DNA of 44,883 nucleotides, from NCBI GenBank assembly GCA_030395855.1, contig GCA_030395855.1_4325.1. The stretch is one strand, 5' to 3'. The translations under genes were made by a program, and so were the position numbers. Origin of the DNA: a phage. The notes under the pieces are model-generated. The model was not told the origin of the DNA, searched no databases, and saw nothing but the letters and a program-made list of their open reading frames with translations. This document shows, piece after piece, positions 18,435-44,883 of this stretch; position 1 is the stretch's first letter; every line of letters begins with the position of its first letter.

Positions 18435-19394
18435 GTAGAAGTTTGGGATAAATGGAAGTGCCATTGATATGTTCGTGTCGAAAGGAAACTGAGCGCCTGT
18501 CTGAGTTGAGTAGTTACCTATTACAGATCCAGGAACAGCCCTAACGGAGCCTCCAGACATGCAAACACCCTTGTATCGTAAGTTGTTATACCCTCCGGTA
18601 ACTCTAGTCGTAGCGCCGCACCTAAGCAGCGGGAAGAAACCACCATTTATTGACTGATATCCATTGCTTATTTGTATAAATCCACCAAGAACGAATGGGC
18701 GGCGAACACTTGAAAAAACAATCTGACCAGAACTATTTGACATTGTGAGTCCGGGTCCAGCTGGTGGTGGTTCATTCCTGAATATCACCAATTGAACGTA
18801 AGTACTTGCCGCAACATCATCTGTACCTCCGTAGGTTATATCCCTACACCATATTGTTGATCCATCTGATTCAAGTGATACGTTTGGATTATCCCACTTG
18901 CCGAATGGTATTCCGCTAACTGGTAGCGATGCTGCACCGTTAACCTGTATACCCCCAACCCATGCTGCTGACATTAGTCTCGAGTTGCTTGATATAGCAA
19001 GGAAATCAGTTGAGTTCTCAACAAGTATTCCAGGACTTGATGAGGATGAAGCCGGTAGTATCTCAAAGCAATTCCCTGCAAAGTCAATTATTCGACCATT
19101 AGCACCGTTAAAGTTACTAAGCGTTATCCTTCCAACTCCGTCATTAACCTTTTGGAATCCATTCATATAATAAACTTCAGGTATAACATCGTAAGCATCA
19201 ACGTGAACAGCCTTTATTGGTAGACAGAAGGCCGTAGAACCAGGTGACATTGTCAATCCAAAATCCCACGAACTTGCAGGAGTTGAAAGTCCATTGGTAT
19301 TTATTGAGCCAGTCACGGCTGGTGCCCTTAATCCTGCCGTTATTTCCATCGCTGGTCTTCCGTCATTGAGGTCAATCAATATACCCTGCGGCAT
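18432..19394 (-). CDS. hypothetical Gly/Ser/Asn-rich protein (320 aa), co-transcribed with upstream lipoprotein gene
   Basis: RBS AAGGAG before ATG at 19394; TAATG stop/start overlap with the lipoprotein gene. Confidence 0.6.
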   Translation of the reverse strand: MPQGILIDLNDGRPAMEITAGLRAPAVTGSINTNGLSTPASSWDFGLTMSPGSTAFCLPIKAVHVDAYDVIPEVYYMNGFQKVNDGVGRITLSNFNGANGRIIDFAGNCFEILPASSSSSPGILVENSTDFLAISSNSRLMSAAWVGGIQVNGAASLPVSGIPFGKWDNPNVSLESDGSTIWCRDITYGGTDDVAASTYVQLVIFRNEPPPAGPGLTMSNSSGQIVFSSVRRPFVLGGFIQISNGYQSINGGFFPLLRCGATTRVTGGYNNLRYKGVCMSGGSVRAVPGSVIGNYSTQTGAQFPFDTNISMALPFIPNFY

Positions 19395-19639
19395 TATTTC
19401 CACTCCTTGCTGCCATGATCTGCAATGGAGCCACCGTAACCGCCGCCAGCTTTGCTTTCAATGCCAGCGTAGCGAATATCAACCTCACCAGCCGGAACAA
19501 CTACGCCACCCTTCCATTTAGCTACGCACACACCAATTGCTTGCGTTGCACACCAACCATCCGGGCGAGGACCGGAAGAACAACCAACTGTCATGATTAC
19601 TGCTGCGGCGATGATTGCTGATTTGATTAGGTTAGTCAT
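19394..19639 (-). CDS. small lipoprotein (82 aa), candidate Cor-like superinfection exclusion protein
   Basis: N-terminal signal peptide ending in lipobox MTVGC; RBS GAGGAA; conserved promoter element upstream on minus strand. Confidence 0.55.
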
Positions 19640-19678
19640 TTTGTATTCCTCATTAAGTTGTTTCGTTTCGATGGAGTA

Positions 19679-19722
19679 ACTATACACGCAACCAGCGTTG
19701 GAGTCTTTAGCTATTTGTGCTA
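19679..19722 (-). promoter_or_regulatory. conserved promoter/operator-like element copy (minus strand)
   Basis: Minus strand reads tagcacaaatagcta, 23-nt spacer, TATAGT, then CCATCGAAACGAA leader. Confidence 0.55.
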
Positions 19723-19818
19723 TTGCATACGCGTAACCGATGTAACTCGATGTATACAATCTCATCCGCGGGAAATGATATACGATCTGTTACGCCAATT
19801 TACGCATTAGTTACATTA

Positions 19819-19882
19819 AAATATCTATATATATCAACCTTTTACTCTTATTATTATTATATATATATTACTGTGTATATCA
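19819..19882. repeat. AT-rich repeat block A (AATATCTATATATATCAACCTTTTACT + (TTA)n + TATATAT...TACTGTGTATA)
   Basis: Shares a 27-bp identical core and overall architecture with block B at 37846-37912; lies in a divergent intergenic region. Confidence 0.7.
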
Positions 19883-20183
19883 TGTAACTACTTCTATAGA
19901 GTGTTCCGGTTATAAATTTCTAACATGTACATTTATACAGTATTTAATCACACGCACACCAATGCACCCTCCGCTAGAAATGATATACACGATATACACG
20001 CTGGTTACATTGAGCTATAGCAGGGCTGAGGCTTTAAAAAACGTAACTAGTGGCAATACCTACAGGTAATTACAAGGATTCACGCGTAAACTTGAATCAG
20101 CGATTGGCAAAACCAATTGGACTGGTTACGGTGCCGAATATATAGTTAACCAATCGAAAGCAAACAACCAGAGAGATACAGAA

Positions 20184-26193: not shown

Positions 26194-26236
26194 ACTATAC
26201 ACAATGTATAGCGCCACTGTTTATCAATTCGTGCTA
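26194..26236 (-). promoter_or_regulatory. conserved promoter/operator-like element copy (minus strand) driving primase
   Basis: Minus strand reads tagcacgaattgata, 22-nt spacer, TATAGT. Confidence 0.55.
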
Positions 26237-26716
26237 TTTCCCTTGCTCTTTAGCTTTTCGTGCTGCCTCGTTAGCGGCCTTAATCTTGCGCCATGATCGA
26301 CACTCTGGCTTGGTGGCTAATTCAGCCTCAGTAACAACACGCAGCATGTGACGCTTTTTGCAACGCAGAGTTAGCGGCTTCCCGTTACCGTCGAATTGCA
26401 AATCTGGTCGGCAGAATGTAGCGCGAAAACCCTCCCCAGTTCGTTTGTAGTAGTTGTGCGACAACTGAGCACCTCGCGCAGAAATCATACCGCGCTTAAA
26501 CCATTCCTCTACAGCCTGTGGTGTTACCTTTAATTGCTTTGCCATATTTGCCTTTGTGCCGAAGAAATCAAGAACTATCTCCAGGCGTGCCCGTAACCCG
26601 GCTCTTACTTCATCTTTTAAAACGTAGTAGCCTGAAGGTCGTTTTCGCTGCTTTTTATCTTCAGTGCGGATGGTTCCGTTATTGCCGTTAATGGTTCTCT
26701 TGTCGACTGTATTCAT
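26234..26716 (-). CDS. HTH DNA-binding protein (Cro/YdaS-like putative transcriptional regulator)
   Basis: Segment MAKQLKVTPQAVEEWFKRG resembles a helix-turn-helix; basic termini; RBS GAGGT; divergent from helicase gene. Confidence 0.55.
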   Translation of the reverse strand: MNTVDKRTINGNNGTIRTEDKKQRKRPSGYYVLKDEVRAGLRARLEIVLDFFGTKANMAKQLKVTPQAVEEWFKRGMISARGAQLSHNYYKRTGEGFRATFCRPDLQFDGNGKPLTLRCKKRHMLRVVTEAELATKPECRSWRKIKAANEAARKAKEQGK

Positions 26717-26817
26717 CTTATTACCTCGATAGCATTTTTTGTTAAAAGTCATCCTGATTTGATGGTAATATTGTACTCAATTAAACGCTACAAGACAATT
26801 TTTATAGGAATTTAGAT

Positions 26818-28812
26818 ATGTTGCCTATCGAGAAGCTGGTTGCAAACTTCGATAAAGAAAGAATTAAACAGATTCAGAAAGATTACCAGTTTGGCGAGAT
26901 AACCCCTTACGAGTTCCAGTGCGTTACATTTGATGCTATCGGAAAGGCTATTGGAAAGTACGAGGCACCATTTATCGCAGACCTTTCAGTATCTGCTGGT
27001 AAGACAATCATTCTCGCCATGATTGGAAAGCGCATGGAGCAATTGGGGTTGCCTTACATGGTTCTTTCTCGCCAGTCAGAGATAATAAGCCAGAACTCAG
27101 AAGAACTTCGTAATTTCGGCATCCGCAACAGCGTCTACTGCGCCGGACTTAACGTTAAATCAGTTTACTACCCAACCATAGTTGCTAGTGAGGGCACGGC
27201 AGCCAACGGCCTATTTAAGGGGCTTGGTGACTATGTTCCGGCAGTTATTGCAATCGATGAGTGTCATATGGTTGATCACATGGATATCGTTGAGGCTGAA
27301 GAGAACGAAGAAACATTTGAGCAAATGAGTACAAAGAAAGGCGAGATGGTTTTTAAGGATGGCGTTAATACTGGATTGCTTGGTACTGGTCGTGCGCAGT
27401 ACACGCTAATCATTACTGAGATGAAGCGTCGTTGTCGTGAGAAGTACGGGCGGGAGCTTCGTATATTCGGCCTAACTGGTAGCCCTTATCGAAACAATGA
27501 CCATATCGTCGTTAGCAATCCAAACATCCGTGGATTCTGGCGCAAAACAGTGATTCAGGTGCCAACCAATTACCTTGTTGATTTGGGTTTCGTGGTACCT
27601 ACTGTTTATGGCGAGGTTGGCGATTTAGGTTATGACCTTAGCGAGTTTGTTCCAGACGGTAGTGATGGCGTGAAAGACTTTAGCAAGAGAGAAATGGATG
27701 CAATGGCAGCGAAGATTCACGACAACCAATCCATGACTCAAAAGATAATGGGTTTTGTTGTAAAAATACTAGAGACTCGTAACGCCGCATTGGTAACGTG
27801 TGCTGGTAAACTTCACTGCGAAGAAGCTGCTGCAGCGCTACCAGATGGATACCCTTATGCCATCATCACCGACTCCACGGGAGAGAGGAGGCGCAGAGAG
27901 ATTCTGGCTGATTGCCAGACAGGGAAGTACAAAATAATATTCCAGATTGGTTGTCTAACCACAGGCGTAAACCAACCGCTGTGGGATACTAGCGTCATAC
28001 TACGCAAGATTGGCAGCCTAACCTTAATGATTCAGCTTCTTGGTCGTGGAATGCGAAAACTAAAAAAGGCGCACATAGATGCTGGATTTAAGAAAGATGA
28101 TCACCTTGTTTTAGACTTCGCTGGCGCGCTTGATGATATGGCGGAACTTTACTTTGACCCAATAATTGAGGAGATACAGGCCGAGAAGTTTAAATCTTCA
28201 AGAAAAGGTGGTGATGAGGTTCGCCAGTGTCCACAATGTGGATATGAGAACTCGCCATTTGCTAGACGCTGTAGCAATAAGATTAATGGCGTTAGATGCG
28301 ATCACTTTTTCCAGTTCACAACATGTGATGATATTACCGACCAACAAACAAAGGCGGTAATCAAGAAAGGTTGTGGAGCTAAAAATGACATAGCAGCAAA
28401 AGTTTGTCGTGAATGCGGAGAAATGCTTAAAGACCCAAACGCTAACCTGACTGGAAAGATGTATCGTCGCGGAGACTATTTGCGGGTTTATGATTTTCAA
28501 GTTGGTTTAACCAAGAATCAAACTGGCATTGTAGTTAAGTACAATATCATGGCCCACAACGGAGAAAGATTTAACGCTTGGGAGTTCTTTAATCCAGAAT
28601 CTGACCATAGGGTTTGTAGTGTGCTTTGGAAAAACTTTTGCCTTGATCACATTGAAAATCGCGCTGAAGCAGCACGAATTGGCAGACTGAAGAATGCCAG
28701 AATGATTATGACTAACGCAGATAAGTTTCGTGCGCCAGTCCAGGTGACACACCGCAAGAATAGCAAAGGAAAGGATATAATAGCTTTTAAGAATTTTGGA
28801 GAATTGTTATGA
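26818..28812 (+). CDS. superfamily-2 DNA helicase with C-terminal zinc ribbons
   Basis: Walker A SAGKT and DExH box IDECH; two C-terminal CxxC...CxxC clusters. Confidence 0.75.
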   Translation: MLPIEKLVANFDKERIKQIQKDYQFGEITPYEFQCVTFDAIGKAIGKYEAPFIADLSVSAGKTIILAMIGKRMEQLGLPYMVLSRQSEIISQNSEELRNFGIRNSVYCAGLNVKSVYYPTIVASEGTAANGLFKGLGDYVPAVIAIDECHMVDHMDIVEAEENEETFEQMSTKKGEMVFKDGVNTGLLGTGRAQYTLIITEMKRRCREKYGRELRIFGLTGSPYRNNDHIVVSNPNIRGFWRKTVIQVPTNYLVDLGFVVPTVYGEVGDLGYDLSEFVPDGSDGVKDFSKREMDAMAAKIHDNQSMTQKIMGFVVKILETRNAALVTCAGKLHCEEAAAALPDGYPYAIITDSTGERRRREILADCQTGKYKIIFQIGCLTTGVNQPLWDTSVILRKIGSLTLMIQLLGRGMRKLKKAHIDAGFKKDDHLVLDFAGALDDMAELYFDPIIEEIQAEKFKSSRKGGDEVRQCPQCGYENSPFARRCSNKINGVRCDHFFQFTTCDDITDQQTKAVIKKGCGAKNDIAAKVCRECGEMLKDPNANLTGKMYRRGDYLRVYDFQVGLTKNQTGIVVKYNIMAHNGERFNAWEFFNPESDHRVCSVLWKNFCLDHIENRAEAARIGRLKNARMIMTNADKFRAPVQVTHRKNSKGKDIIAFKNFGELL

Positions 28813-29228
28813 ACATTACAGACAAAGTTGATTACATTGAGTTTTACTCTGGACCTGTTAAGTCGTGTCCGAAAGAGGATGACGAACAAATCTTTTGCTC
28901 TGATTGGGTTAAGTATAACTATCCAGATATGGTATTTTTCCACTGCGTAAATGAGGGTAAGAAAACCATTGGTCAAGCAAGGAAGGACCAGGCTAAAGGA
29001 TTGCTCAAAGGGGTCTCGGACTGTTTATTCCTGATACCTGAATCGCTTAGAGGCAGTTATCCATTTGGAGCCATAGAGCTAAAGAGGGCAGGAAAAACTC
29101 AGGCTAGCCCGGTCAGCGATGAGCAGAGGTCCTTCCTTAAAAGCGTAAGGGAATCAGGAGGTTTCGCCGCCGTGGCCTACGGACGCGAGGGCTTTCTAGC
29201 AGCATTCAAAGAAATGATTTCAAAATAG
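28809..29228 (+). CDS. VRR-NUC domain nuclease
   Basis: DCLFL...GAIELK...SDEQ segment resembling the VRR-NUC PD-(D/E)XK core; ATGA overlap with helicase stop. Confidence 0.6.
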   Translation: MNITDKVDYIEFYSGPVKSCPKEDDEQIFCSDWVKYNYPDMVFFHCVNEGKKTIGQARKDQAKGLLKGVSDCLFLIPESLRGSYPFGAIELKRAGKTQASPVSDEQRSFLKSVRESGGFAAVAYGREGFLAAFKEMISK

Positions 29229-34823: not shown

Positions 34824-36407
34824 TCACCCCAATAGTCTTGGATTAATGTAAACTTTATCACCAATCAGGCATGTATAGTTTTTCTCATCAAGCATTGGCA
34901 GTAAGTGATCTTTAATCTTCGTCATTACTCCCGCCTGGGCCTCGAACGGCTTAACCTTACGCGCTGCCTCGTACAGAGAACGAATACCCACTACACCTTT
35001 GCCGTTCCTTCCTTGCTTAATCAGAATATCAATCAGCTTATTCATCTCTGCATTGTCGCCAGCGTGACCAGCGGCGTTGGCAGATGACAAATAAGTCTTA
35101 CTCAGTTCCTGGAACATAATCACAGCCTCTTGCATGGTATCGAGTTCAATCTCTCTGGACTTCTGAGGGCTACCGCCATTTGGGTTGAACCAGTTACGAA
35201 CAGTGTGAAGGACAGCCGCAATCCTGATGGCTTGCTTATCGAACTTACCCAGAGCGCCGCGCAACATTGTGTGTGAATACTTCCCGCCGTCAGCAAGGTG
35301 AGGTTCCATTTCCTGACGCGCGCGGTTGAGATATTTCATTGCTGAATTACTAACTGTCAACTTAACTTCCTGCTCATTCATTATCTCGTGAACTAAACGG
35401 AAGTAATCAGCCTTCAACCCGGCATCAATTGGTTCATAAGTCGATTCGCCATTTTCATCAACGAATACACGCTCGCCCAGTAATGACTTTTCACGTACAA
35501 GCAGGAAACGCTCAGATACACCGATACCACGCGCGCCAGCGTTCATGATAGCGTTGATTGTCTCATCCTGCGCAATTACAGAGATGCAACCCATAGCGAC
35601 GAAACTCATGTTGTTTTCTGCGTTCGCACGCGCAATGGACACGTTACCAGCATCCCACGCCTTCAGAACAAGCTCGCTGTTAGTTTTCTTAGAGCCGTCA
35701 CCATAGGTCATTCCAAGAAGCGAGTTCACGCTCGTTGCTTCGTCAGAAATTACCGCAAAGTTTCCCTGGCGGTTGTTTATTCTCGCAAGGCCCTCTGGTG
35801 TGGTGTCTGATACGGGGAAAACGATATCGCAAAGTTTCTCGAGCTTTTCCTCAAGCTCATCCTTCTCCTCGAAAAGAGAAGCCATCTCTGACGGGGATTT
35901 TTCCTGCTTCATCTCTTTGGATAATGCAGATAGTTTAGCCATGATCTTTTTGCGCTCACGCTTTCGGACTTCATTCAGTCGCTCAGTCTCAGCAATCATT
36001 GGAGCAATAGATAGCGAGTTAATGGCTGACTTACCAGTCGATGGAGGCTGGCTTGTTACTACGTAAAGCGAGGTTGGTTGTTGAGTTCCATTATATTCCA
36101 CCGTAAAACGGCCTAGCATCGCAGCGGAAATACACCCCAGGAAGTGCATGTAAGCTGAAGACTCTGGAAACTGAACCGAACGGGCGATGTTAGATGAAAG
36201 TTTACCAACAACATCAACATCATTTCCGAGTGAGATTACGGGATACTTGTCGTTAGCTGCATCAATCTCGACCGGAGCCTTCCAGAATGATTGAGACTGG
36301 CGATAGCCATTAGCATTAATAGCGACTCGCAGGGGTGGGAGGTTGTCTGCGGCAGCAATTGCCATAACCTGTTCAACAGATAGCTTATCTTCGTTGAAAT
36401 CAAACAT
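34824..36407 (-). CDS. putative replication NTPase (DUF3987-like, helicase/primase-associated)
   Basis: 527 aa; Walker-A-like PPSTGKSA; RBS GGAGAG; family assignment from memory of motif pattern, not verified. Confidence 0.45.
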   Translation of the reverse strand: MFDFNEDKLSVEQVMAIAAADNLPPLRVAINANGYRQSQSFWKAPVEIDAANDKYPVISLGNDVDVVGKLSSNIARSVQFPESSAYMHFLGCISAAMLGRFTVEYNGTQQPTSLYVVTSQPPSTGKSAINSLSIAPMIAETERLNEVRKRERKKIMAKLSALSKEMKQEKSPSEMASLFEEKDELEEKLEKLCDIVFPVSDTTPEGLARINNRQGNFAVISDEATSVNSLLGMTYGDGSKKTNSELVLKAWDAGNVSIARANAENNMSFVAMGCISVIAQDETINAIMNAGARGIGVSERFLLVREKSLLGERVFVDENGESTYEPIDAGLKADYFRLVHEIMNEQEVKLTVSNSAMKYLNRARQEMEPHLADGGKYSHTMLRGALGKFDKQAIRIAAVLHTVRNWFNPNGGSPQKSREIELDTMQEAVIMFQELSKTYLSSANAAGHAGDNAEMNKLIDILIKQGRNGKGVVGIRSLYEAARKVKPFEAQAGVMTKIKDHLLPMLDEKNYTCLIGDKVYINPRLLG

Positions 36408-37488: not shown

Positions 37489-37515
37489 ATCTATACCCTC
37501 GTTGTTGATGAGCTA

Positions 37516-37559
37516 ACTATATCCTCACTAACTCCTAATGTCTTTAGCAAAAAGTGCTA
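37516..37559 (-). promoter_or_regulatory. conserved promoter/operator-like element copy (minus strand)
   Basis: Minus strand reads tagcactttttgcta, 23-nt spacer, TATAGT. Confidence 0.55.
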
Positions 37560-37845
37560 TTCGTTAGATTTATGGATTGATGCAGATATTGCAATGATTC
37601 ATATGATTATTGCACATACAGCAATATTGCTTCCGATGCAATGATGTTTTTGATTGTTGCGAAAAGTGAAATGAAGTGGGGAGTGAGTGAATGAAAGATT
37701 GATGGACTACCATACAAGTTGATTTTTACCAATCTATGGGAGCCTCACGGATATACGCGTATCCTCCGTATACTCATTGTCGTCACAAAAGTTAGTGACC
37801 ACTAACCTACGTTTTTACGCGATATATACACACGATATACAATAT

Positions 37846-37912
37846 AATATCTATATATATCAACCTTTTACTTTATTATTATTATTATTATTATATATAT
37901 GTATACTGTGTA
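37846..37912. repeat. AT-rich repeat block B (same core as block A, with longer (TTA)n tract)
   Basis: AATATCTATATATATCAACCTTTTACT + (TTA)5-6 + TATATAT + TACTGTGTATA; second divergent intergenic region. Confidence 0.7.
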
Positions 37913-38189
37913 TACCGGCAATTGGTGAGATTATTGATATGTTCCGCGCAGATATTCTGACACCTGTCAGAAATGGATGGCATTGTAGGAATAAAAGGCA
38001 CATATATAGGGAATGGCTTCAAAAATCTGTACACATCGGATACGGCACATTTACAACCAGCAATGGAGGGGCCTCTGGAGGCAAAAAGCGTATCCATGAT
38101 AAAATAGACGAAAATATACATTGACCGACACGTAAATAGATGGCAATATAGCAGTCACTGAAACGAAGTAAAACAAACGAGGTATCAAC

Positions 38190-42579: not shown

Positions 42580-42657
42580 GATCTGCTAGCTCAACAGGAA
42601 AGAAGCAACGACCTTCTAAGTCGTAGGTTACTGGTTCGAATCCAGTGCGGATCGCCA
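42580..42657 (+). tRNA. tRNA-Arg (anticodon UCU), with encoded CCA
   Basis: Folded by eye: acceptor stem GATCTGC/GCGGATC (one G-U), anticodon stem ACGAC/GTCGT, loop CTTCTAA (anticodon TCT at 42615-42617), T arm ACTGG-TTCGAAT-CCAGT, discriminator G, CCA. Confidence 0.8.
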
Positions 42658-43921: not shown

Positions 43922-44883
43922 ATGTCTTTAGTATGGGAAGAAATGACCATTCAGGAAAAGATGGCCGTCAAAGCGATATCAGAGCATAGCTTCGAGGGCT
44001 TTTTAAGGTGCTGGTTTTCAATAACGCAAGGCGAGCGATACATCCCTAACTGGCATCACAAATATCTATGCAGAATTATTGACGAGATTATCGCAGGAGA
44101 GCGCAAGGATACTATCATTAACATAGCACCAGGCAGCGGAAAGACAGAAATCGCTTCAATCCATTTTCCGGCCTACTCTATGGTTAAGCTGAAGAAGGTG
44201 CGCAACCTTAACATCTCTTTTGCCGACTCATTGGTTAAGCGTAACTCTAAGCGCGTTCGTGATCTTATCAAGTCTCAAGAATTTCAATCACTCTGGCCTT
44301 GCAAATTTGGCACATGTAAAGACGATGAGCTTCAAGTTCTTGATGAGAGTGGTAAGGTTAGATTTGAGTCAATATCGAAAGCGGCTGGTGGTCAGATTAC
44401 CGGTGCTCGCGGTGGGTACATAACCGAAACATACAGCGGAGCCGTTCTGTTGGATGATTTTGACAAACCCGCAGATATGCTATCAGCAGTGTACCGCTCG
44501 AATAATCACGTAATGCTCAAGAACACGATTAGATCACGCCGAGCTAGCTCTGTAAAAGAAAAGGCGACACCAATCATTTCGATACAGCAGCGCTTGCACG
44601 TTAATGACTCCACCTGGTTCATGATGGAAGGTGGTATGGGTATCGACTTTGACTTGATTAAGATACCGGCATTGGTCACTGAGGATTACATCGATTCACT
44701 TCCTGACTGGATTAAAGAGCAGTTTGCAGAGGATGTACTAAGCAGCGAATGCATTGAGCGAGATGGCGTAAAGTACTATAGCTACTTCCCAAAAAAGGAG
44801 TCAGTAAGCGACCTTGTGGCTATGTGGGATAGTGACCCGTACACTTTTCTCAGCCAGTACCAACAAGAGCCTGTAGCGCTGGG
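43922..44883 (+). CDS. terminase large subunit, N-terminal (ATPase) part, truncated by window end; continues at 1..689
   Basis: Walker-A-like APGSGKT; frame is continuous through the 85-bp duplicated junction into ORF 18..689. Confidence 0.8.
   Translation, partial: MSLVWEEMTIQEKMAVKAISEHSFEGFLRCWFSITQGERYIPNWHHKYLCRIIDEIIAGERKDTIINIAPGSGKTEIASIHFPAYSMVKLKKVRNLNISFADSLVKRNSKRVRDLIKSQEFQSLWPCKFGTCKDDELQVLDESGKVRFESISKAAGGQITGARGGYITETYSGAVLLDDFDKPADMLSAVYRSNNHVMLKNTIRSRRASSVKEKATPIISIQQRLHVNDSTWFMMEGGMGIDFDLIKIPALVTEDYIDSLPDWIKEQFAEDVLSSECIERDGVKYYSYFPKKESVSDLVAMWDSDPYTFLSQYQQEPVAL

Follow-up and report, generated by a model that had tools for sequence, protein, structure and literature searches.

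A duplicated AT-rich repeat module in a T1-family coliphage as a candidate pair of replication origins

What role is played by the AT-rich repeat block that separates two divergent operons in this phage? The window, the whole 44,883-nucleotide stretch analysed here, is the complete genome of an Rtp/T1-like coliphage (Drexlerviridae, Braunvirinae); its nearest records are Veterinaerplatzvirus T145P1 and phage 2725-N35. Positions 1-85 are identical to 44799-44883, and this exact 85-bp terminal overlap shows that the assembly was circularised and that the complete genome measures 44,798 bp. The gene layout was assigned by comparison with Rtp, EC3a and T1; the genome has a single tRNA gene (42580-42654, plus strand). 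The block, hereafter block A, has a leftward lipoprotein/membrane-protein operon on one side and a rightward operon coding for a 64-aa protein, recE, erf and ssb on the other (region A). A related block, B, is found in region B (37489-38189), flanked on one side by a leftward small-gene operon that ends with the gene for a DUF3987 helicase and on the other by small early genes in a rightward operon that continues to the terminase. The genome reaches its lowest G+C content (0.327) at 19801-20100, over block A. An earlier reading of the sequence, the original prediction, proposed that region A could be an early promoter cluster, a replication origin with iterons or a binding region for a nucleoid protein.

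Region A was initially delimited as an ORF-free segment of 418 bp (19766-20183). The segment is indeed non-coding, but the gap extends further to the left. The ORF at 19394-19765 (minus strand), which gives a product of 123 aa from the ATG at 19765, overcalls the leftward lipoprotein gene. The 81-aa product that starts at the ATG at 19639, with the ribosome-binding site GAGGAA, matches the Pfam model Phage_lipoprotein over positions 1-80 of 80. Because this shorter product fits the model end to end, the gene most likely starts at 19639 and not at 19765, and the non-coding gap is therefore 544 bp long (19640-20183). An insertion hot spot occupies the stretch from the lipoprotein gene to block A (19640-19780 and its equivalents in other phages), where an anti-repressor, a DNA methylase, an HNH endonuclease or small ORFs are found in related phages, with block A intact.

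Each of the flanking operons has a promoter of its own. Inside the gap lies a reverse copy of the ATAGCAC promoter (19723-19704, with the -10 at 19684-19679) that had previously been overlooked. For the rightward genes, the absence of this conserved element had been noted and a different promoter postulated. We found no ATAGCAC box there either; the promoter is a sigma-70-like sequence, TGGACT-17-TATAGT (20118-20146), whose -10 and leader are the same as those of the conserved element. Since both operons are thus provided for, the block probably lies in an untranscribed gap.

The ATAGCAC promoter copy is one instance of a family-wide intergenic element, ATAGCACgaaTTGCTAAAg, which is found on the plus strand at 686, 8539, 21348, 25178, 29225, 32646, 38826, 39344, 40161, 40683 and 41760, and on the minus strand at 19723, 26237, 36915 and 37560. 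The element fits AYnGCACnnWnnRYYAAAYn, the E. coli marbox consensus (the MarA/SoxS/Rob site), at 12-14 of the 14 specified positions, and marbox-like matches with a GCAC core number 23, compared to 4.2 ± 2.2 in shuffled sequences. A TATAGT-like -10 sits 18-19 nt past the 20-mer, which places the box at about -50 to -31, in forward orientation and overlapping the -35, a geometry that corresponds to class II as defined in PMC12052159. The function of this type of repeat was listed as an open question in the TLS paper. It may be that T1-like promoters, judging from this resemblance, depend on host Rob/MarA/SoxS or on a phage mimic.

A second copy of the 27-nt core of block A, AATATCTATATATATCAACCTTTTACT, had been claimed, and the core does occur exactly twice in the genome, at 19820 and 37846 and both times on the plus strand. 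In A the core is succeeded by (TTA)4(TA)4, in B by (TTA)7(TA)3, and TACTGTGTATA comes next in both. The repeat is thus real, but its extent had been underestimated: it had been assigned to 19819-19882, and the similarity begins about 30 nt to the left of that. In the best local alignment between the intergenic regions, 19790-19879 is paired with 37815-37914 and 80 of 100 columns are identical; the score of 98 compares with 21.6 ± 2.5 in shuffled sequences (maximum 31). Block A forms the middle of a conserved module about 300 bp long, which consists of opposed, helically phased arrays of short TTACGC/TACAY repeats (spacing 9-11 bp), an IHF consensus and a (TTA)n(TA)n microsatellite. The order of the repeats was obtained by marking the motif (T/A)TAC(G/A)N on both strands. 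The tandem GATATACAC pair is present at 19982 and 19991 as described, and an additional, inverted third copy lies at 19873, within block A; the tandem pair and the flanks of the block are one repeat family, a relationship that had escaped notice. The elements of the module, and of its counterpart in region B, are as follows.

19679-19723, minus strand: promoter of the leftward lipoprotein/membrane-protein operon, with an ATAGCAC...TAAAG element (19723-19704) and a TATAGT -10 (19684-19679); left boundary of the module.
19731-19759, minus strand: three left-pointing phased repeats, GCGTAA (19731-36), ATGTAA (19740-45) and ATGTAT (19750-55), spacing 9-10 bp.
19780-19816, plus strand: four right-pointing phased repeats, ATACGA, TTACGC, TTACGC and TTACAT, spacing 10, 10 and 11 bp.
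19820-19846, plus strand: 27-nt core common to block B, with a perfect match to the IHF core consensus WATCAANNNNTTR in the form TATCAACCTTTTA (19832-19844) and an A/T tract before it.
19848-19867, no strand assigned: (TTA)4(TA)4 microsatellite of variable length, proposed DNA-unwinding element.
19868-19891, minus strand: right arm TTACTGTGTATATCATGTAAC, in which two inverted, left-pointing repeats, GATATACAC and GTTACAT (19873-19887, spacing 9 bp), stand opposite the left array on the far side of the AT tract.
19925-19942, plus strand: conserved stretch ATGTACATTTATACAGTAT, with further TACAT/TACAG repeat-like units; the motif marking places a unit near 19935.
19982-20011, plus strand: GATATACAC GATATACAC GCTGGTTACAT, three right-pointing phased repeats, spacing 9 and 11 bp.
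20118-20146, plus strand: sigma-70-like promoter TGGACT-17-TATAGT of the rightward 64-aa/recE/erf/ssb operon; right boundary of the module.
37807-37914, plus strand: block B, with its elements in the same order as in A, namely phased repeats (37807-37842), the identical 27-nt core (37846-37872) with its IHF consensus (37858-37870), (TTA)7(TA)3 (37873-37899) and an inverted repeat pair (37899-37913).

The left-pointing array overlaps the palindrome TGTATACA and is nearly invariant in 15 phages. Together with the right-pointing array at 19780-19816 it forms an imperfect palindrome around CCGCGG (19766-19771). In the group of three repeats further right (19985-20010), the tandem GATATACAC pair is accompanied by GGTTACAT.

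The phased repeats are concentrated in the two regions. Phased TACRY pairs number 10 in the whole genome, nine of them in regions A and B, against 2.8 expected; all five phased triples are in A or B, against 0.12 expected, and the density of the repeat in these regions is about six times the genome average. Blocks A and B are also the two least stable duplex segments of the genome at scales of 30, 50 and 100 bp (z about 5, the next segment about 3). The same was found in 11 of the 12 Drexlerviridae genomes tested, including those of T1, TLS and KP36, the exception being phiEB49, which has a third low-stability site. We considered this AT-rich site (about 18577) as a further block, and rejected it as an ordinary AT-rich gene start devoid of repeat arrays. 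Moreover, two of the four perfect IHF consensus matches in the genome are the A and B cores (TATCAACCTTTTA at 19832 and 37858), and variant cores retain WAT(C/T)AA-N4-TTA. The proposal of a nucleoid-protein binding region holds up in this one form, as a predicted IHF site.

Two copies, on the same strand and at the same two places, were present in every genome examined, a family-wide architecture that the original prediction had not recognised. The set comprised Rtp, T145P1, EC3a, 12210I, IME253, IME542, ES and DTL, together with CJ19 and TH21 (Nouzillyvirus) and e4/1c, phiEB49 and BECP10 (Rogunavirinae); for DTL, a partial locus, and for TH21, with 50,000 of 52,087 bases covered, a single copy was recovered. 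From 18 sources, 12 of them whole genomes and six partial loci, 26 A and B elements were collected. In these 26 elements the ACGC/ACAY positions of the four-repeat array hold a phase of 10-11 bp and the spacers vary, a footprint-like pattern; at block A, the ACGC/ACAT positions are invariant across the phages. In an alignment of 15 phages, the segment at 19705-20020 is more conserved than the adjoining coding DNA. The Nouzillyvirus phage CJ19 matches the 119 nt around block A at 100% identity, in an enclosing region that is 69% identical overall, and about 83 phage records contain block A at an identity of 95% or more. The B copies vary far more between phages than the A copies, with the architecture kept, and the two cores of a genome vary jointly; in e4/1c, for example, both read ATCCTTATATAT(T/A)AAGG. 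A comparison of (TTA)n among relatives, as had been suggested, gave a total length of the AT tract of 18-27 nt, which differs among phages as well as between the A and B copies. The exact core was detected in 11 IMG/VR loci, apparently mostly from phages also in GenBank. We also considered a host or plasmid origin of the block, and dismissed it: similar DNA was absent from the 5,426 E. coli genomes and 72,556 plasmids searched, and there was no sign of satellites or host sites that share the element.

The comparison was extended to T1, TLS and the Klebsiella phage KP36, in each of which the two least stable 60-mers of the genome are the equivalents of A and B. The flanking repeats are lineage-specific: TTACGC/TACAY here, ATTACGCC/GATTAACAC in T1, GTGAACA/TGGAACA in TLS and ATCTTAC in KP36. 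The TLS repeat is found as GTGAACA/TGTTCAC at 28760-28790, 28995-29015, 140-150 and 410-440 of that locus (L030), and GTGAACA is the complement of seven of the eight bases of the P4 type I origin repeat, TGTTCACC. Because the repeats differ among T1, TLS and the Rtp-like phages, all of which infect E. coli, the protein that would recognise them is probably phage-encoded. For the same reason, that the repeat changes between lineages infecting one host, we dropped the host regulators DnaA (TTATNCACA), LexA, OmpR, CpxR (GTAAA-N5-GTAAA) and RstA, which in a comparison by eye showed partial resemblances. Block A always lies upstream of the recE operon and points toward it, also in different neighbourhoods: a leftward, divergent operon is missing from this place in TLS, and KP36 has the recE operon and the block inverted together.

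A similar arrangement was found in three distant phages whose DUF3987 helicase is 34-40% identical to the one studied here. In all three, an AT block of (TA)n or (TAA)n, the least stable 50-mer of each examined locus (z 4.1-5.3), lies just upstream of a contiguous helicase operon. These operons code for the DUF3987 and SF2 helicases, with recE in L026 and L027 and a primase in L027 and L029. The blocks are the following.

L026, 9240-9640: AT block with locus-specific GGGGGTA repeats on both sides.
L027, 8600-8930: AT block with locus-specific CCTTACCGRAA repeats on both sides.
L029, 1-180: AT block that runs off the end of the locus, with CCTTACC/ATCTTACAT repeats on the one readable side.

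One of these loci has a separate, near-consensus promoter of the TTGACA type about 300 bp from the block.

Which phage proteins could act at the two blocks? The genome codes for a primase, for an SF2 helicase and for two proteins that we regard as candidate binders of the repeats.

34824-36407, minus strand: DUF3987 helicase.
26234-26752: Cro-like HTH protein of 172 aa.

The primase has a homologue in T1 that carries an annotation of similarity to P4 alpha, and this T1 protein is homologous to the TLS primase as well. The structure of the DUF3987 helicase, predicted with confidence (pLDDT 89.4, pTM 0.87), gave MCM2-7 subunits as best PDB matches, with Foldseek TM-scores of about 0.3, and the secondary structure of its C-terminal part (about residues 451-521) reads as a winged helix in the model. 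This suggests that the DUF3987 protein is an MCM-like replicative helicase, here in a classical coliphage family. A DUF3987 protein from a different mobile element is an SF6 replicative helicase with 5'-3' polarity (PMC11724360). We compared the two candidate binders with the repeats across the three lineages available. The winged helix of the helicase in this phage is closer to that of TLS, which has different repeats, than to that of T1, which has similar ones, so that covariation does not support it as the specificity determinant. The recognition helix of the HTH protein has a Gln in this phage and in T1 and a Lys in TLS; with three lineages, the HTH protein fits slightly better than the winged helix as the putative determinant.

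Phased, opposed arrays, a site for a host bending protein and an AT tract of minimal stability, in a gap that is probably untranscribed, near genes for replication and recombination and with repeats that are lineage-specific, are the reasons why we read block A as the core at which DNA unwinds in an origin-like site of DNA-protein assembly about 300 bp long. All T1-family phages examined carry two copies, A and B, and the pair would be the replication origin. We give this reading a probability of about 0.45. Among the functions offered originally it is the best supported, by the phased arrays, the lowest duplex stability, the proximity of replication genes and the conservation in the family. 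From the sequence we infer protein binding, dependence on IHF, unwinding and initiation of replication in the following manner. A phage-encoded protein would bind the short TTACGC/TACAY repeats in their opposed arrays of 9-11 bp spacing, and host IHF would bind TATCAACCTTTTA in the core and bend the DNA. The neighbouring (TTA)n(TA)n tract, the least stable duplex of the genome, could then melt, whereupon the MCM-like DUF3987 helicase and the P4-alpha-like primase of the phage would load. Divergent transcription from the flanking promoters may assist through negative supercoiling.

Known origins offer several likenesses. In the origin of SaPI, the Staphylococcus pathogenicity island, an AT-rich region of about 60-80 bp, the presumed site of melting, reportedly lies between two sets of short repeats, next to a primase gene and to the gene for a helicase that doubles as initiator (Rep), and the repeat sequence is said to be element-specific. 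Here too, repeats of element-specific sequence flank an AT-rich region near primase and helicase genes, but there are two copies per genome, the units are 5-7 nt long and spaced 9-11 bp in opposed arrays, and the core contains an IHF consensus. In P4, ori and crr are two separate cis sites with the same short repeat, bound by the alpha primase-helicase. The T1-family genomes examined all have the same repeats at two separated sites, and their primase is annotated as alpha-like; however, we identified no origin-binding domain of the alpha type in this phage, and its helicase is DUF3987/MCM-like and not of the P4 SF3 kind. SPP1, a virulent Bacillus siphovirus that packages from a pac site, reportedly has two distant and similar origins, oriL and oriR, with repeated boxes beside an AT-rich segment that are bound by one phage protein. 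The two distant, similar regions with repeats beside AT-rich DNA are shared, whereas the sequences and proteins are unrelated and one of the SPP1 origins is inside the initiator gene, both copies here being intergenic. SPP1 oriL/oriR and P4 ori/crr are precedents for two origin-like sites in one phage. Finally, phased arrays with a site for a host bending protein and an adjacent AT element of low stability are also features of iteron origins with IHF and an unwinding element, such as lambda ori, pSC101, R6K and oriC with its phased low-affinity DnaA sites. The repeats are much shorter here than the 17-22 bp of plasmid iterons, however, and the unwinding element would be a microsatellite of variable length; on inspection by eye, no good DnaA box was seen in the block.

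Some observations weigh against an origin. Two copies per genome are unusual for one, the variation of the AT tract from 18 to 27 nt shifts the helical phase between the arrays, and the position and orientation of A relative to recE are fixed. The last of these is explained at least as well if the blocks are early promoter/operator regions, the main rival reading, which we hold to be less probable. The (TA)n/(TAA)n tract would then give the -10 elements of one or two early promoters, the TTACGC/TACAY repeats would be operators for a phage regulator, for example the Cro-like HTH protein, IHF would shape the complex, and the two copies would control two early regions in the manner of lambda OL/OR. 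Early transcription of the recE and small-gene operons must begin exactly at the places of blocks A and B, block A keeps its position and orientation relative to recE in TLS and KP36, and AT-rich divergent intergenic regions with repeated operators are typical of early control; had an ancestral replication operon been split, a control region would be needed for each half, hence two copies. Divergent promoters were predicted here by software in the EC3a and ETEP102 records, and on the minus strand of every variant a -35-like hexamer from the right-arm repeats lies 16-18 nt from an AATAAT/TATAAT -10. Yet promoter-like matches are not enriched over shuffled sequences (5 against 2.6 ± 1.5 and 7 against 4.6 ± 2.0), and a fixed rightward promoter, TTTACT-17/18-TATATT, was rejected because it is lost in the B copies with longer tracts. 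The flanking operons, moreover, already have promoters beside their first genes, and the arrays are up to 100-300 bp away from these and do not overlap them. The weak covariation of the HTH recognition helix with the repeat type, in three lineages only, would suit an operator, but the three distant phages retain the repeat/AT block with no homologue of the 172-aa protein detectable within 10 kb. In lambda OL/OR and in the early operator of Mu, as here, repeated sites are present at two places in the genome, and there they control divergent early transcription; in Mu, IHF binds between the operators, which recalls the IHF consensus within the core. Inside the present block, in contrast to both systems, we found no conserved, well-placed promoter, and the repeats flank the recognisable promoters and do not overlap them. 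Mapped transcript 5' ends were not found for any T1-like phage in the literature searched. The origin and promoter readings are compatible and not mutually exclusive, and T7 and T4, for example, have origins that contain both a promoter and an unwinding element.

A purely architectural role, in which a flexible, IHF-bound AT tract organises the chromosome or insulates the divergent operons and has no part in initiation or promotion, is very unlikely in our view. It would account for the perfect IHF consensus, for the extreme AT content with its TA steps and for the location between divergent promoters, but it leaves unexplained the lineage-specific arrays of phased repeats, the near-invariance of 120 nt across genera and the association with the replication module in distant phages. 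We consider it similarly improbable that the blocks are accessory sites for packaging or recombination, either related to pac or hot spots of recombination or concatemer processing for terminase or RecE/Erf. Block B is about 230 bp from the point at which the T1 and Rtp records begin, T1 having its positions 1-2800 marked as terminal repeat, and block A adjoins recE/erf; furthermore, the P1 pac site likewise joins short repeats and an IHF site. However, the likely pac signal is a different family of repeats, TTGCAATGAT-like, at 37568-37690 and not near A. Block A is better conserved than B, yet 26.8 kb separate the two, and direct repeats of 60-90 bp so far apart would if anything cause harmful deletions. 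As a pac site itself, block A was rejected: the ends of the T1 and Rtp records correspond to about 37620, within the TTGCAATGAT-type repeats, and block B is some 230 bp to the right of this point. A structured or small RNA was also set aside, with no Rfam match at the gathering score or at E <= 1 and fold z-scores of +0.65 and -1.27 relative to shuffled sequences.

The region at 37568-37690 contains TTGCAATGAT-type repeats at 37590 and 37637 and the palindrome GCAATATTGC at 37621, and it is 94% identical to CJ19, where the background identity is about 70%. Position 37620 corresponds to the start of the Rtp record, and position 1 of T1, the annotated start of its terminal repeat, is at the equivalent place. 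On the basis of these matches, the region is a probable pac, or terminase recognition, site.

Returning to the reading of A and B as origins, we extend it, tentatively and with less confidence than we have in the reading itself, to the family as a whole: T1-family phages may replicate from a pair of bipartite origins, A upstream of recE and B beside pac, each built from an IHF bend, a microsatellite unwinding element and lineage-specific repeats of 6-7 nt by which the MCM-like DUF3987 helicase is recruited, in a design ancestral to a wider group of phages that share the helicase. Papers on T1-like phages report that no replication origin was found (PMC11447400, PMC7718038). In the searchable literature we found neither the element nor an origin described for T1-like phages, and no results from marker-frequency analysis, 2D gels or plasmid amplification; a mention in the T1 (Virology 2004) or Rtp genome papers is possible. 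The kind of element is familiar; this family of elements and its two-copy conservation across the Drexlerviridae appear to be undescribed.

T1 belongs to the original T phages, and the analysis provides two precise candidate origin sites, of about 100 bp each and with defined sub-elements, namely arrays of repeats, an AT tract and an IHF site. If the reading is correct, the still-unmapped origin of a classical T phage would be located and a new pairing of origin and initiator defined. It would explain how replication starts with an MCM-like helicase and a split P4-like primase, and the two sites could serve as phage-dependent replicons for the engineering of Drexlerviridae, phages often met with in phage therapy collections and as contaminants of fermentations. 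If the blocks are early promoter/operator regions instead, the early control circuit of the family would be defined, and a gap would be filled either way.
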